Shown here piece by piece: positions 20,157 to 25,212 of a DNA stretch of 52,788 nucleotides (the stretch's first letter is position 1; the number at the start of each line of letters is the position of its first letter). Source of the stretch: Candidatus Uhrbacteria bacterium. Lineage in GTDB: Bacteria; Patescibacteriota; Patescibacteriia; JACQRZ01. A model generated the notes under the pieces. That model saw nothing but the letters and a program-made list of their open reading frames with translations, did not search any database and was not told the origin of the DNA. A program made the position numbers and the translations under genes. The stretch spans positions 1 through 52,788 of the forward strand of contig JACQSB010000002.1 of assembly GCA_016206175.1 (NCBI GenBank), read 5' to 3'.

Positions 20157-20804
20157 ATGGCCCCCGCCCTCTTTTCCTCCATCCCCCCCCGTCTGCAACT
20201 GCTGTTTGAATCATTTGATCCCGAACAGCCGTGGCTGATTATTCCAAAGATAGAAGAATACGTGCGTGCAGACGTGCGGCCGGGCAACCTCGGTACGGTG
20301 CAGGGTGATATATGGATTGATGATGATGTCGAAATCGGTGCCGGCACTGTCATCGAACACGGCGCGGTCGTCAAAGGACCCGCGATCATTGGTAAAGATT
20401 GTGAGATACGTGCTCATGCCTACATCCGCGGTGGAGTAGTTATCGGAGATAACTGCGTGATCGGCCATGCGACAGAAGTCATCCGTTCGGTGTTGATGGA
20501 TCGAGTGCGCGTTGATCATTTTAATTATATCGGCGACTCGTTGCTCGGCGCGGGAGTCCATTTTGGAGCTGGCGCAAAAACAGCAAATTTGCGTTTTGAT
20601 GAGAAAGAAATTGTTATCGATGGTACGCAGACCGGCTTGAAGAAATTTGGCGCGATCCTTGGCGATGGATGCCAACTCGGCGTAAATGTTTCTGTTGGTC
20701 CGGGCATTATTTTTGAACCATCCGTTTGGCTTGTCGGCTCCTTGCTCCTTCCTGCTGGCCGATACACGCGAGATTCCCTGAAACAGTATCGGTCGGCGAA
20801 ATGA
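20157..20804 (+). CDS. Stand-alone hexapeptide-repeat acetyltransferase similar to the C-terminal half of archaeal-type GlmU (GlcN-1-P N-acetyltransferase)
   Basis: PWLII, LbH repeats, GPAIIGKDCEIRAHAYIR, HFNYIGDSLLG, ANLRFD, KKFGAILGD; no N-terminal GxGTR nucleotidyltransferase domain. Confidence 0.8.
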   Translation: MAPALFSSIPPRLQLLFESFDPEQPWLIIPKIEEYVRADVRPGNLGTVQGDIWIDDDVEIGAGTVIEHGAVVKGPAIIGKDCEIRAHAYIRGGVVIGDNCVIGHATEVIRSVLMDRVRVDHFNYIGDSLLGAGVHFGAGAKTANLRFDEKEIVIDGTQTGLKKFGAILGDGCQLGVNVSVGPGIIFEPSVWLVGSLLLPAGRYTRDSLKQYRSAK

Positions 20805-20805
20805 T

Positions 20806-21816
20806 ATGAATACGTTTCTCCAACAGTTGCGCGCGCGCGCGACGCAAGGGTTTGTGCGGACTATTATTTTCCCGGAAGCGCAGGACGAACGCGTTGTTGC
20901 GGCTGCCGCAATCTTACGCGAAGAAAACATCGTACGCCCCCTGTTTGTGGGTACTTCCCAAGATGCTGCGCGCATACGAGAGCTCGGTTTTGATTGTGCG
21001 CAGATCGAAGAAGAACGCGCCAATGAGCTCGAACATATTCTAGCGGATGCGCGGTCCTCCAAGATCGGCACAAAAGATGAGCTCACCAGTGACGCGGCTC
21101 GGCTATTAGCGCATGACCCGCTTTTTTACGCCATGTATTTATTGAGGCTCGATTCCGGAGACGGCCTTGTTGCCGGCGCTGTGCGGCCTACTGCGGATGT
21201 TGTACGCGCAGGTCTTTGGTTGATCGGAAAGGCAGCAGGCATTCGGACTGTTTCCAGTTCCTTTTACATGGTCCTTCCATCGTTTCGCGGCACTGCCTCG
21301 GAGGAAGTTTTAAGTTTTGCCGATTGTGCAGTTGTGCCTGCGCCAACTGCAGAACAGCTTGCTGATATTGCCATTGCGGCAGCTCGCGCGCGCGAAAAGA
21401 TTGTCGGCGATGAGCCGCGCGTTGCGCTTCTTTCATATAGCACAAAAGGTTCGGGCGGAGACGACTCTTCTATTGCTGTTGTCCGTTCTGCATTGCAGAT
21501 CGTGCGCAAGCGCAGACCGGAGATCATCATCGACGGAGAACTTCAGGTGGATACGGCATTGATTCAATCGATCGCCAATCGAAAAGATCCAGATGGCTTT
21601 CTTGCGGGCCTGGCGAACGTTTTGATCTTCCCTTCGCTTGATGCAGCAAACATCGCCTACAAGCTTGTTGCTCATCTTGTCCCCGGCGCGCAGGCTTTGG
21701 GGCCGCTTTTGCAAGGCATGGCAAAGCCGATGAGCGATCTTTCCCGCGGCGCGTCAGTGCAAGATATCGTCTCTATCGCAACAATGGTCGCATCGCAGGC
21801 AAGCAAGCGCGACTAA
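20806..21816 (+). CDS. pta: Phosphate acetyltransferase
   Basis: [68 protein letters not shown]...DLSRG. Confidence 0.95.
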
Positions 21817-21820
21817 TCCT

Positions 21821-24205
21821 ATGCAGAATAGTAAAACAACAAAACAATATCTACCCAAAGATGTCGTGAAAAAAATCGACGAATATTGGCGCGCGGCGAA
21901 TTATTTGTCTATTGGCCAGATTTATTTGTACGACAATCCACTCATGAGGCATCCGTTATCCCAAGATGACATCAAGCCACTCTTGATGGGGCACTGGGGG
22001 ACTACGCCGGGACAGAATTTTATCTACGCGCACCTCAACAGAATTATCAAACAGTACGATCTGGACACGATATACATTTCCGGTCCCGGACATGGCGGAC
22101 CCGCGTTGATTGCGAACACATATTTGGAAGGTACCTACAGTGAGGTTTATCCTCACATCAGCCAGAATGAAGAAGGGATGAAAAAATTATTCAAACAGTT
22201 TTCTTTTCCGGGGGGTGTGCCGAGCCACGTTTCTCCGGAATGCCCCGGGTCAATCCACGAAGGAGGCGAGCTTGGATATTCCTTGAGCCATGCCTTTGGC
22301 GCTGTATTTGATAATCCTTCCCTCATCAGCGCGTGCGTCGTGGGAGACGGAGAAGCAGAGACGGGTCCTCTTGCAACAGCATGGCATTCGAATAAGTTTT
22401 TGAATCCTCAAACTGACGGTGCAGTGTTGCCGATCCTTCACTTGAATGGATACAAGATTTCAAACCCGACACTCTTCGCTCGTATCTCGCGAGAAGAATT
22501 AGATCAGCTATTCCGCGGTTACGGATGGACACCGCATATCGTAGCAGGCGATGATCCTATCGCAATGCATCATGCAATGGCGCGCACGCTGGACGGTTGC
22601 ATTGATGAGATCAGACGCATCCAAAATGATGCGCGACAGCACAATGCTCTGACACGCCCGCGATGGCCCATGATTATCTTAATCACTCCGAAAGGATGGA
22701 CAGGCCCAAAGATGATTGATGGCAATGCAAACGAAGGGACGTTTCGATCCCATCAGGTTCCCTTTGCGGACGTAAAGACAAATAAAGATCACTTCGATCA
22801 ATTCGTTAGATGGTTGAAGAGCTATAAGCCGGAGGAGTTATTCGATGCTGCTGGGGGATTGCGACCGGATCTTCGCGATCTTGTTCCAACGGGTGCGCGG
22901 CGCATGGGCGCAAACCGGCATGCAAACGGCGGACTGGTATTGCGTGATCTTATCTTGCCTGACGGTAGCAACTACGCTGTACAGTTTTCAAAGCGCGGAG
23001 AGCAGCACGAGGGAGCTACGCATGTATTCGCTCGATTTTTGCGTGATATAATTAGGGAAAATGAGGAGCATCGAAACTTTCGTATATTCGGTCCGGATGA
23101 AATACTGTCGAATGGATTGGGAGCGATATTTGAAGCGACAAACCGTCAGTGGATGGCTGAACTGAAAAGCAGTGATGAGTTCTATGCACCGTACGGTCGT
23201 GTGATGGAGGTCTTAAGCGAGCACCAATGCCAGGGATGGCTGGAGGGCTATCTTCTCACCGGACGTCACGGGCTTTTTACCAGTTATGAAGCGTTCATCC
23301 ATATTGTAAGCTCGATGTTCAATCAGCATGCCAAATGGTTGGATACTACTTCTCGTATTCCGTGGAGAAAACCGATCGCATCACTCAATTACCTCATCAC
23401 TTCTCATGTATGGAGACAAGGGCACAATGGCTTTACGCATCAGGACCCAGGATTCATTGACCACGTGTATGTGAAAAAAGCGGATATCATCCGCACCTAT
23501 CTTGTGCCGGACGCGAATTGTCTTTTGGCAGTGATGGCAACGTGCTTTTCAAGCAAGCACAAGATTAATATCGTAGTGGCCGGCAAGCATCCGATGCCGC
23601 AATGGTTTTCAATGGAAGAAGCGATCCGCCATTGCCAAAAAGGGATCGGCGTTTTGGATTGGGCAAGCAATGACGGCGGAGACGAGCCCGATGCAGTGCT
23701 TGCCTGTGCAGGAGATGTGCCGACACTCGAAACGCTCGCGGCAGTTTCAATCTTGCGTGAGCATCTTCCCGAGTGCAAGATTCGCGTCGTCAATATCGTG
23801 GATCTCATGACATTGCGGCCGCGTAAAAACCATCCGCATGGGCTCGAGGATGCAGAGTTTGAAACCTTTTTCACAAAAGATAAACCGATCATCGTTATCT
23901 TTCATGGCTACTCATCGCTCATCCATCGGCTTACCTACCGCCGTCCCAATCATGACAATATGCATGTGTACGGATATCAGGAGGAAGGCACAACGACTAC
24001 CCCGTTTGATATGACAGTGCTCAACGCCATTGATCGTTATCATATTGTCCAGTATGTCGTTGATTCCCGCTCCGATAAGGGTGAGAAGGAGTTGCGCCTT
24101 TCACGCCTTATGGAAGAAAAGATTGCCGCCCATCGTGCGTATGTTGTCGAGCATGGCCAGGACCTGCCAGAGATACGCAACTGGCGGTGGGGTCAGAATG
24201 TATGA
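21821..24205 (+). CDS. xfp: Xylulose-5-P/fructose-6-P phosphoketolase
   Basis: [79 protein letters not shown]. Confidence 0.97.
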
Positions 24206-25212
24206 AGACAAAGAAACACATTGTCATCATTGGCGGGGGCACGGGGACATTTACGTTGCTGAAGGGTCTTCATTCGTTTCCTATCAAAATTAGCGTCATT
24301 GTCTCAACCGCAGATAGCGGCGGCTCCACTGGCGTCCTTCGCAACGAGCTCGGCGTCATGCCTCCAGGCGATTTGCGGCAATGTCTGCTCGGCCTTTCAC
24401 AGGCGGATCCGTTGTTGCAGCATCTATTTGGTTATCGGTTTGACCGAGGATTTTTGGAAGGCCACACTATCGGCAATATCATCCTTGCTGGATTGGAGCG
24501 AATTACAGGAAGCAGTGAGGCGGCAGTACGCGAAGCCTCACGTCTCCTGAAAGTGCACGGTTCCGTAGTGCCGGTCACGAAGAAGCCGACGACTTTAATC
24601 GCAATTCTTGAAAATGGACGCCGAATCGTTGGAGAACATTTCATTGATGAACCAAGGCACGATGGCACGTTGCGCATTCGTTCTCTTGTACTTACGCCTT
24701 CCGGTTCCGCAAATCCAGATGCTCTCCGACTGATCAAAACTGCGGATGCCATTGTTTTCGGCCCCGGAGATTTATTTACCAGCACGCTGCCGAATATTAT
24801 TGTTGATGGGATGGCGCAAGCGATTCGTTCATCGCGTGCAAAAAAAATTCTCGTGACCAACATCATGACGAAGTATGGACAGACTCATGGGTTTACGGCG
24901 AGTGATTTTCTAACAACGCTCGAACAGTATCTTACAACAAAAATAGGAGAAAAGATTATCGATACGGTAATCGTGAATACAAAAACGCCGCCGCAATCAG
25001 TGTTGGTAAAATATAAAAAGGAACATGCTCTGCCGGTTGTTGCGGACAAGCATGAATTGGCGCGGCGCGGAGCGGCTGTCATTACTGGCGATTTTCTTTC
25101 TCGTGATCCTATAAAAAAACAGATGGGCGATGAATTAAAGCGCAGCATGCTACGCCACGATTCGGTAAAAACCGCCCGTGCGATCGTATCGTGTTTGAAA
25201 CGTTACCCTTGA
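24202..25212 (+). CDS. yvcK: YvcK/GlmR family (CofD-like) UDP-sugar-binding protein
   Basis: [54 protein letters not shown] overlap with xfp. Confidence 0.92.

Follow-up and report, generated by a model that had tools for sequence, protein, structure and literature searches.

A glmS operon of a Patescibacteria bacterium with a stand-alone GlmU-type acetyltransferase gene, acetyl-CoA-forming genes and yvcK

The window analysed here, a stretch of 52,788 nucleotides from a Candidatus Uhrbacteria bacterium, carries on its + strand a tightly packed operon in the order trmB-glmS-LbH-pta-xfp-yvcK. The first gene encodes a TrmB-family sugar-type transcription regulator (17536-18306; PF01978, E 3.2e-9) and is followed after 24 nt by glmS, encoding glutamine--fructose-6-phosphate transaminase (18331-20154; TIGR01135, 791 bits against a cut-off of 418). 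After a gap of 2 nt comes the gene of a stand-alone left-handed β-helix (LbH) protein of 215 aa, a predicted GlcN-1-P N-acetyltransferase (20157-20804), separated by 1 nt from pta (20806-21816), which in turn lies 4 nt ahead of xfp (21821-24205). The last gene, a yvcK/glmR-family member encoding a CofD-like protein of a UDP-GlcNAc-binding family (24202-25212), overlaps xfp by 4 nt when read from the ATG at 24202, or by 19 nt from an alternative GTG start at 24187. The preliminary description had placed the GlmU-like gene in one operon with yvcK, and this packing bears it out. The two top sigma-70-like sites of the region, each agreeing with the consensus at 11 of 12 positions, lie ahead of trmB (17499-17527, + strand; TTGACA-17-TATGAT) and immediately downstream of yvcK (25209-25237). 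They are no more than matches to the consensus, 22 being seen where 14.2 are expected. Orthologues of trmB adjoin glmS in relatives G001, G005, G040, G047 and L063, and a nucleotidyltransferase (NTase) of the GlmU-N type in G026 and G054.

The LbH protein aligns to positions 215-386 only of the 393 in the archaeal GlmU model TIGR03992 (Arch_glmU), at 174.4 bits where the cut-off for a whole protein is 292.1. It is not a bifunctional enzyme with both domains in one polypeptide scoring at least 292.1 bits, and with none of the GlmU models does it pass the curated cut-off for a whole protein. A Pfam search returns Hexapep/LbH models and no NTP_transferase (PF00483) domain. Because the reading frame opens two codons upstream of the ATG, and the glmS stop ends 2 nt before that ATG, there is no N-terminal domain that is hidden or frameshifted. 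The top match in the PDB is the archaeal bifunctional enzyme ST0452 of Sulfolobus tokodaii (2ggo/5z09; residues 208-376, 96.9 bits), with which the protein shares the catalytic-region motif H-x-x-Y-x-G-D-S ... A-N-L-R-F-D-E-K-E. ST0452 residues H308, Y311, N331 and K337, which we take to be the catalytic positions of its acetyltransferase domain, align to H121, Y124, N144 and K150; the first three do not vary among 7 orthologues, whereas K150 does. Since it also retains the NTase-domain tail motif F-D-P-x-x-P-W, the protein looks truncated and not cleanly fissioned. Among its listed longer relatives, 119 of 120 carry PF00483, and stand-alone relatives are common in Verrucomicrobiota and Chlamydiae. 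On these features the gene encodes only the left-handed β-helix half of an archaeal (ST0452-type) GlmU, in agreement with the earlier reading of it as an acetyltransferase alone. A different architecture, TIGR03991 (alt_bact_glmU, NTP_transf_4 plus LbH), adjoins glmS in G040 and G047, in the slot that the LbH gene takes here, but the window protein lacks NTP_transf_4 and scores 82 bits against a cut-off of 225.

A search for a full-length glmU had been proposed beforehand, and it found none. In the genome carrying the window (G000), no glmU of either type exceeds its cut-off; each glmU model gives 4 sub-threshold matches, the best match to the bacterial model TIGR01173 reaching 68.3 bits against 366.85. 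As this genome is only 77% complete, the absence rests on G001, a genome of the same genus that is 100% complete, where the same four pieces are present and no glmU of either type is over cut-off; G005, G011, G033 and G043 likewise have no glmU over cut-off. None of 61 class-level genomes passes the TIGR01173 cut-off, and 19 of the 61 hold a stand-alone GlmU-N-only gene of 251-304 aa. Demand for the product is indicated by murA, which is present at 492 bits, above its cut-off.

Between the LbH gene and yvcK lies a slot for acetyl-CoA-forming genes, a feature newly described here. In G000 it holds pta, whose product forms acetyl-CoA from acetyl-phosphate and CoA (PF01515, 297 bits against a cut-off of 24; TIGR00651, 288.9 bits, a little short of the 311.2 required), and xfp, for a phosphoketolase that forms acetyl-phosphate from F6P or X5P and Pi, with XFP_N, XFP and XFP_C domains (NF003619, 1361 bits against 962). 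In close relatives the slot holds citryl-CoA synthetase/lyase together with Tdh/Kbl: citryl-CoA synthetase/lyase adjoins the LbH gene in G001, G005, G011, G013, L063, L065 and L072, Tdh and Kbl are also there in G001 and G005 (NF005394, 591 bits against 460), and kbl adjoins glmS in G047. A tblastn search of G000 found none of citryl-CoA synthetase/lyase, Tdh and Kbl, and xfp is found in none of 4 family relatives. Overall, acetyl-CoA-forming genes are adjacent to the LbH gene in 8 CPR genomes. The pta-xfp pair could also serve energy metabolism.

Three canonical PF00483 sugar-1-phosphate nucleotidyltransferases are encoded in G000: a 233-aa protein on contig C26 (122.9 bits), an NTase in the window that carries an N-terminal ribbon-helix-helix (RHH) domain (137.8 bits) and an RmlA-like protein on contig C10 (169.6 bits). 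All match the profile and carry the motifs G-x-G-T-R, G-D, E-K-P and W-x-D-x-G, with some deviations. The C26 enzyme aligns to Arch_glmU positions 1-226 with 199 bits, compared with 141.8 for the RHH-NTase and 136.8 for the C10 protein, and its top PDB match is again ST0452, over residues 1-217 (106.5 bits), so that the two domains of the archaeal enzyme are here found as separate genes on different contigs. The N-domains of the 120 listed LbH relatives match it in 104 cases (mean 90.5 bits), the RHH-NTase in 85 (83.0 bits), the C10 protein in 91 (69.8 bits) and YvcK in none; C26 is the best of the three for 34 of 40 fused-relative N-domains among the matches listed. In a tree that includes no characterised reference enzymes, the C26 clade (SH-aLRT 97) lies within a 34-row group that holds 29 fused N-domains (SH-aLRT 88). 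In this clade Pro replaces the Asp of W-x-D-x-G found in most NTases (W-H-P-V-G in C26), a change common to some fused relatives, and C26-type NTases also occur in 3 family genomes without an LbH gene.

The GlmS-GlmM-GlmU route to UDP-GlcNAc is regarded as a fixed pathway and a drug target. The locus is probably a hexosamine operon that leads from fructose-6-P to GlcNAc-1-P via a split archaeal-type GlmU, a reading that joins predicted enzyme activities and substrate specificities to what is observed directly, namely domain content, operon packing, the lack of a full-length glmU, the presence and relationships of the NTases, and comparative gene order. GlmS would form GlcN-6-P, an archaeal-GlmM-like mutase encoded on contig C19 beside murI would convert it to GlcN-1-P, and the 215-aa LbH protein would acetylate this with acetyl-CoA drawn from the same sugar-phosphate pool, through acetyl-phosphate made by phosphoketolase and its conversion by Pta. 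A stand-alone canonical NTase, and not YvcK, would then uridylylate GlcNAc-1-P, while YvcK would act as a UDP-GlcNAc-binding accessory or regulatory protein as in Firmicutes, with at most some uridyltransferase activity of its own. The seemingly missing uridylyltransferase activity thus most likely comes from ordinary stand-alone nucleotidyltransferase genes; the ST0452-N-domain-like C26 enzyme is the leading candidate for the transfer, at about even confidence, and the RHH-NTase a tentative second.

The predicted reactions and the fold classes are those of bacterial GlmU (TIGR01173; E. coli, B. subtilis GcaD), of which no full-length member was detected in G000 or over cut-off in the class-level genomes. 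A close parallel in arrangement is given by truncated or separately encoded GlmU domains with NagU (Fong et al., bioRxiv 10.64898/2026.06.23.733835), where an acetyltransferase-only GlmU-like gene is likewise complemented by a separately encoded uridyltransferase. Unlike those systems, no NagU/UDPGP-type gene was found here: a search for PF01704 was negative in G000, G001 and G005 and positive in a chlamydial genome. The candidate partner is instead a PF00483 NTase, and the acetyltransferase, an archaeal-type one, shares its operon with acetyl-CoA supply genes. The locus joins other recent indications that separate proteins often share out the last two steps of UDP-GlcNAc synthesis. Its acetyltransferase gene is accompanied by genes of enzymes dedicated to forming acetyl-CoA, which differ from one close relative to the next (phosphoketolase/Pta in place of citryl-CoA lyase and Tdh/Kbl). 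This offers a concrete model, open to test, for the way in which ultra-small bacteria poor in central metabolism may secure one essential acetylation.

The best-surviving alternative, possible but less probable than the assignment to C26, is that the RHH-NTase (28961-29797, − strand) is the GlcNAc-1-P uridylyltransferase, with C26 making another NDP-sugar such as UDP-glucose; through its RHH domain, the state of the RHH-NTase may be linked to transcription. The preliminary description had named this gene as the alternative to YvcK, and it stands as a real gene and a live candidate, although it now ranks second to C26. Residues 1-45 form the RHH region: RHH_1 (PF01402) scores 20.5 bits, exactly at its cut-off, an AF2 model (pLDDT 89.5) places an extended segment at 1-10 and helices at 11-20 and 29-41, and 12 residues of the region are invariant in 61 homologues. 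Such a NikR-like RHH fused to an NTase is widespread in Patescibacteria, which is newly described here: the family comprises 1087 homologue clusters, occurs in about 1/8 of sampled Patescibacteria genomes, and is strongly conserved over its full length (55-92% identity among 120 listed homologues). In the window the gene is co-directional with pgk (27710-28945, − strand; PF00162, 438 bits), which begins 15 nt downstream, a pairing kept in G005.

The RHH-NTase has better gene-order support than the C26 NTase. In G000 and G005 some 4-9 kb separate it from the operon. The G047 genes run RHH-NTase-kbl-glmS-(NTP_transf_4+LbH)-trmB, next to a PGM/PMM gene, and the RHH-NTase takes the slot there that belongs to a bacterial GlmU-N NTase in G040. 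Within family f1 all 4 LbH-bearing relatives have it and none of the 11 others does, and in the class sample GlmS accompanies it in 12 of 13 genomes (22 of 61 overall), but in the phylum sample the link to GlmS is gone (11/24 against 97/200). The tree makes its clade sister to bacterial GlmU-N NTases (SH-aLRT 89), again among sequences that include no characterised reference enzymes, yet the solved structures nearest to it are those of GDP-mannose pyrophosphorylases, tlr0611 and MurU: GDP-mannose pyrophosphorylase-like chains reach 123 bits and ST0452 only 45.8. A search for a phosphomannose isomerase (PF01050, PF01238) that would feed a GDP-mannose role found none. Also weighing against it are the fact that G040 and G042 have a bacterial GlmU-N NTase as well and its motif deviations, G-V-K-M for G-T-R-L in motif 1 and, in the window copy, A-D for G-D. 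The family is worth flagging as a widespread group of RHH-fused nucleotidyltransferases. More speculative still, and in our judgement improbable, is that it unites enzyme and regulator in one polypeptide, forming UDP-GlcNAc while its NikR-like RHH domain binds DNA and sets hexosamine or glycolytic gene expression by sugar-nucleotide load, beside an LbH operon with interchangeable acetyl-CoA cassettes.

The first suggestion, that the organism uses YvcK as its primary GlcNAc-1-P uridylyltransferase by non-orthologous replacement, now seems very unlikely. YvcK is a clear family member (TIGR01826, 300.4 bits against a cut-off of 196; 241 bits to PDB 2hzb/2o2z), genetically tied to glmS like its homologues in B. 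subtilis and L. monocytogenes, although yvcK here closes a glmS-LbH operon and the published operon is yvcJ-glmR-yvcL. Within glmS/LbH operons it is also found in G005, G011, G043, L063 and L065; the glmS-yvcK-LbH operons of L063 and L065, with no NTase gene within the stretch covered, fit an enzymatic and a regulatory role equally. Synthesis of UDP-GlcNAc in vitro is reported for GlmR from L. monocytogenes, B. subtilis and S. aureus (PMC10128056), and GlmR D38A D39A fails to complement in B. subtilis, where the catalytic Asp pair is reported to be needed (PMC13046274). Published views differ on whether GlmR is a uridyltransferase in cells: these two papers favour it, and bioRxiv 10.64898/2026.06.23.733835, in which native S. 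aureus GlmR could not replace NagU plus the GlmU uridyltransferase, speaks against it.

Mapped through B. halodurans 2hzb (D37, D38, N195; constant offset 3), the reported uridyltransferase residues (D40, D41 and N198 in L. monocytogenes; D38 and D39 in B. subtilis) correspond to D-S in the window protein, with the second Asp replaced by Ser and the Asn kept; S. epidermidis 2ppv has D-N at the pair. Of 12 YvcK proteins from CPR genomes, 4 have D at the second position and 5 carry the Asn equivalent to N198. With three canonical NTases in G000, one of them like the ST0452 N-domain, no replacement by YvcK is needed, and YvcK accompanies NTases without standing in for them. A canonical NTase gene lies at most 3 kb from yvcK on the same strand in 8 YvcK-bearing relatives inspected, adjoining it or within that distance in G016, G022, G026, G030, G033, G039 and G054, and the G043 operon reads NTase (GlmU-N type, 180 bits)-glmS-yvcK-LbH. 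In G001, moreover, the frame of yvcK is broken and about 28 residues are lost, but the LbH gene and both NTases are intact; G040 and G047 have glmS and an LbH gene without YvcK. B. subtilis GlmR stimulates GlmS (PMC7525490). A purely GlmS-activating role cannot be general, however, since 13 of 25 YvcK-bearing genomes lack GlmS.

Least probable of all is that the LbH protein is another acyltransferase or a non-catalytic LbH protein, with UDP-GlcNAc obtained by salvage: its sub-threshold GlmU scores and the inconsistent database names of its relatives would allow this, but the 2-nt spacing from glmS, the ST0452 acetyltransferase domain as best solved relative with the presumed His/Tyr/Asn positions kept, the neighbouring acetyl-CoA-forming genes and the NTase+LbH architecture of its fused relatives argue against it. 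The names in question call LbH-only proteins thymidylyltransferases or diphosphorylases, and the present assignment corrects them.

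A GlmU-like gene encoding only the acetyltransferase half and sharing an operon with yvcK, as put forward in the preliminary description, was confirmed both by profile coverage and by gene packing. The operon consists of six forward-strand genes, separated by successive gaps of 24, 2, 1 and 4 nt and ending in a 4-nt overlap between xfp and yvcK: trmB (17536–18306), glmS (18331–20154; profile score 791 bits), the gene for the 215-aa left-handed β-helix (LbH) protein (20157–20804), pta (20806–21816; PF01515, 297 bits), the phosphoketolase gene xfp (21821–24205; 1361 bits) and yvcK (24202–25212; TIGR01826, 300 bits). 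The two top promoter-like sites of the region, candidates by consensus match only, bracket this trmB–yvcK cluster. The LbH protein covers only positions 215–386 of the 393 in the archaeal GlmU model TIGR03992 (174 bits), and among solved structures it is closest to the ST0452 acetyltransferase domain (residues 208–376). Because the reading frame begins two codons 5′ of the ATG, right after the glmS stop, no N-terminal domain is concealed in the gene.

A search for a full-length glmU returned none in the source genome (G000), in its same-genus relative G001 or elsewhere in the sample. In G000 (934 kb in 29 contigs, the window being contig C7; estimated completeness 77%, with relatives' genomes of about 1 Mb), each glmU profile model gave four partial matches and none above the cut-off; a full-length gene was found in none of the five genomes comprising G001, which is 100% complete, and four other LbH-bearing relatives; and the bacterial GlmU cut-off was exceeded in 0 of 61 class-level genomes. 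A stand-alone gene for the GlmU N-terminal domain (251–304 aa) occurs in 19 of these 61, several copies adjoining yvcK or trmB. Stand-alone LbH proteins are themselves common (at E ≤ 1e-20, 938 clusters with lengths of 118–377 aa), and PF00483 is found in none of the 120 listed stand-alone clusters, whose names vary and are wrong. The best 80 LbH loci of the genome collection, with ORFs of 183–352 aa (74 below 300 aa), belong mainly to Verrucomicrobiota, Chlamydiae and Patescibacteria; among them, no nucleotidyltransferase (NTase) adjoined LbH outside the CPR in a blastp search that used only 18 queries (E 1e-8) and may have passed over other NTase types. In two relatives, G047 (L058, 9641–10864) and G040 (L059, 3099–4244), the glmS neighbour is a 381–407-aa NTP_transf_4 plus hexapeptide protein that replaces the short LbH and resembles the ‘alternative GlmU’ of TIGR03991. 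Separately encoded GlmU domains are described for other phyla in the text of bioRxiv 10.64898/2026.06.23.733835, and the split itself is thus an already-known kind of arrangement.

The uridylyltransferase partner of the LbH protein is likely to be a stand-alone NTase of the canonical kind. Three G000 genes carry PF00483, and we give an even chance that the acting enzyme would be the 233-aa sugar-1-phosphate NTase encoded on contig C26 (25619–26320). This C26 NTase is the best NTase match to the other half of archaeal GlmU (positions 1–226, 199 bits), and in the PDB it aligns best with residues 1–217 of ST0452. Among the listed longer LbH relatives, 119 of 120 are NTase–LbH fusions; the N-domains of these 120 are matched by the C26 NTase in 104 cases, by the RmlA-like NTase of contig C10 in 91, by the ribbon-helix-helix NTase of the window (RHH-NTase) in 85 and by YvcK in none, and the fused N-domains were closest to C26 in 34 of a subset of 40. 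The C26 clade also falls among fused N-domains in a midpoint-rooted tree of 77 rows, which took in 40 of the fused proteins and 10 of the RHH homologues (120 of each listed) and was built without characterised reference enzymes. Motif inspection gave no sugar specificity for the NTases. The C26 clade has F-W-H-P-V-G where most NTases have W-x-D-x-G, and the LbH N-terminus (20157–20300) retains F-D-P-x-x-P-W, a copy of the NTase tail motif. We dropped the idea that the Asp-to-Pro change marks a dead enzyme rescued by the LbH N-terminus, because the fused relatives P0010–P0013 carry the same Pro.

That the RHH-NTase (28961–29797, reverse strand) fills this role is a less probable alternative, although its gene-order support is stronger than that of the C26 NTase. 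In G047 it lies directly upstream of kbl–glmS–LbH-type–trmB, in G000 and the relative G005 it is about 4–9 kb from the operon, and within family f1 it occurs in exactly the four LbH-bearing relatives. However, a bacterial-type GlmU-N NTase is present alongside it in the relatives G040 and G042, and its association with GlmS, seen in 12 of 13 cases in the class sample, was not seen in the 200-genome phylum sample (11/24 versus 97/200) and was discarded as general evidence. The enzyme is nearer to GDP-mannose pyrophosphorylases, tlr0611 and MurU than to ST0452. Its N-terminal 45 residues form a NikR/CopG-like ribbon-helix-helix whose conservation equals that of the enzyme domain, with 12 invariant residues across 61 homologues. 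The fusion is represented by 1087 protein clusters, every named one from Patescibacteria, and occurs in 24 of the 200 sampled phylum genomes.

The preliminary description had favoured YvcK (GlmR) as the primary uridylyltransferase, a proposal that was not borne out and that we now regard as very improbable, given that canonical NTases are present and that the comparative data speak against its putative role as replacement enzyme. YvcK is a bona fide TIGR01826 family member. A canonical NTase gene abuts yvcK in four relatives (G022, G039, G030 and G033), lies within 3 kb of it in three more (G054, G026 and G016) and heads the operon of G043 (NTase–glmS–yvcK–LbH); these loci were picked because coordinates put both genes on one contig, with 16 other YvcK-bearing relatives outside the comparison. 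In G001, yvcK (L054, G001:C34, 2165–3101, reverse strand) has residues 5–209 and 238–336 in separate frames and about 28 residues gone, among them the conserved N-x-M-T-K-x-G-x-T stretch, which reflects a pseudogene or else a mistake in the assembly; the same genome keeps LbH (70% identity), the C26 NTase (89%) and the RHH-NTase (92%) intact. The window YvcK has Asp-Ser at the Asp-Asp position of Bacillus halodurans, and the second position of the pair is Asp in 4 of 12 CPR YvcK proteins. Published accounts conflict on GlmR as a uridyltransferase in cells: the activity is reported in vitro, with a D40A D41A N198A mutant having lost function (PMC10128056), and D38 and D39 are reported as required in B. 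subtilis (PMC13046274), whereas native GlmR is described as unable to compensate in S. aureus in the text of bioRxiv 10.64898/2026.06.23.733835. GlmR is also reported to stimulate GlmS directly (PMC7525490). Of 25 YvcK-bearing genomes, 13 lack GlmS, so the role of YvcK is not GlmS activation alone.

By textbook biochemistry, phosphoketolase/Pta, citryl-CoA and threonine dehydrogenase/glycine C-acetyltransferase enzymes would all yield acetyl-CoA. The slot between LbH and yvcK holds pta–xfp in G000, and in G001 and G005 it holds genes for threonine dehydrogenase and glycine C-acetyltransferase (591 bits; cut-off 460) together with a citryl-CoA lyase (267 bits; cut-off 212) and subunits resembling citryl-CoA synthetase. 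Citryl-CoA genes adjoin LbH in five further genomes or loci (G011, G013, L063, L065 and L072), and kbl adjoins glmS in G047. None of the citryl-CoA, threonine dehydrogenase or glycine C-acetyltransferase genes was found by tblastn in the 77%-complete G000, and xfp was found in none of four family relatives; G043 has xfp away from its LbH operon. The simplest reading is that the cassette may be a dedicated acetyl-donor supply for the LbH acetyltransferase, exchanged between close relatives. The remaining pathway steps are predicted to be present: G000 has murA, and an Arch_GlmM/PMM-like mutase gene lies directly upstream of murI on contig C19 (29960–31330; L009, 1477–2847). It encodes the only PGM/PMM-family mutase found in the genome, scoring best as PMM/PGM and as archaeal GlmM, both under cut-off.

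In the open-access literature, bioRxiv supplements aside, we found nothing on archaeal-type GlmU halves in the CPR, on interchangeable acetyl-CoA cassettes or on a NikR-like RHH fusion to an NTase; the main interest of the locus lies in its operon logic and in the RHH-NTase. Around the operon, a Pfam scan matched no family in the ORFs at 25348–26520 (forward), 26693–27151 (reverse) and 27163–27567 (reverse). The latter two have G001 counterparts of similar N-terminal sequence (L054, 422–880 and 5–412). The reverse-strand ORF at 15820–17367 is matched in G001 by a 517-aa ORF (L054, 11781–13334). A class-III aminotransferase gene (29913–31124, forward strand) is divergent from the RHH-NTase gene and is conserved at the corresponding place in G005 (68% identity).
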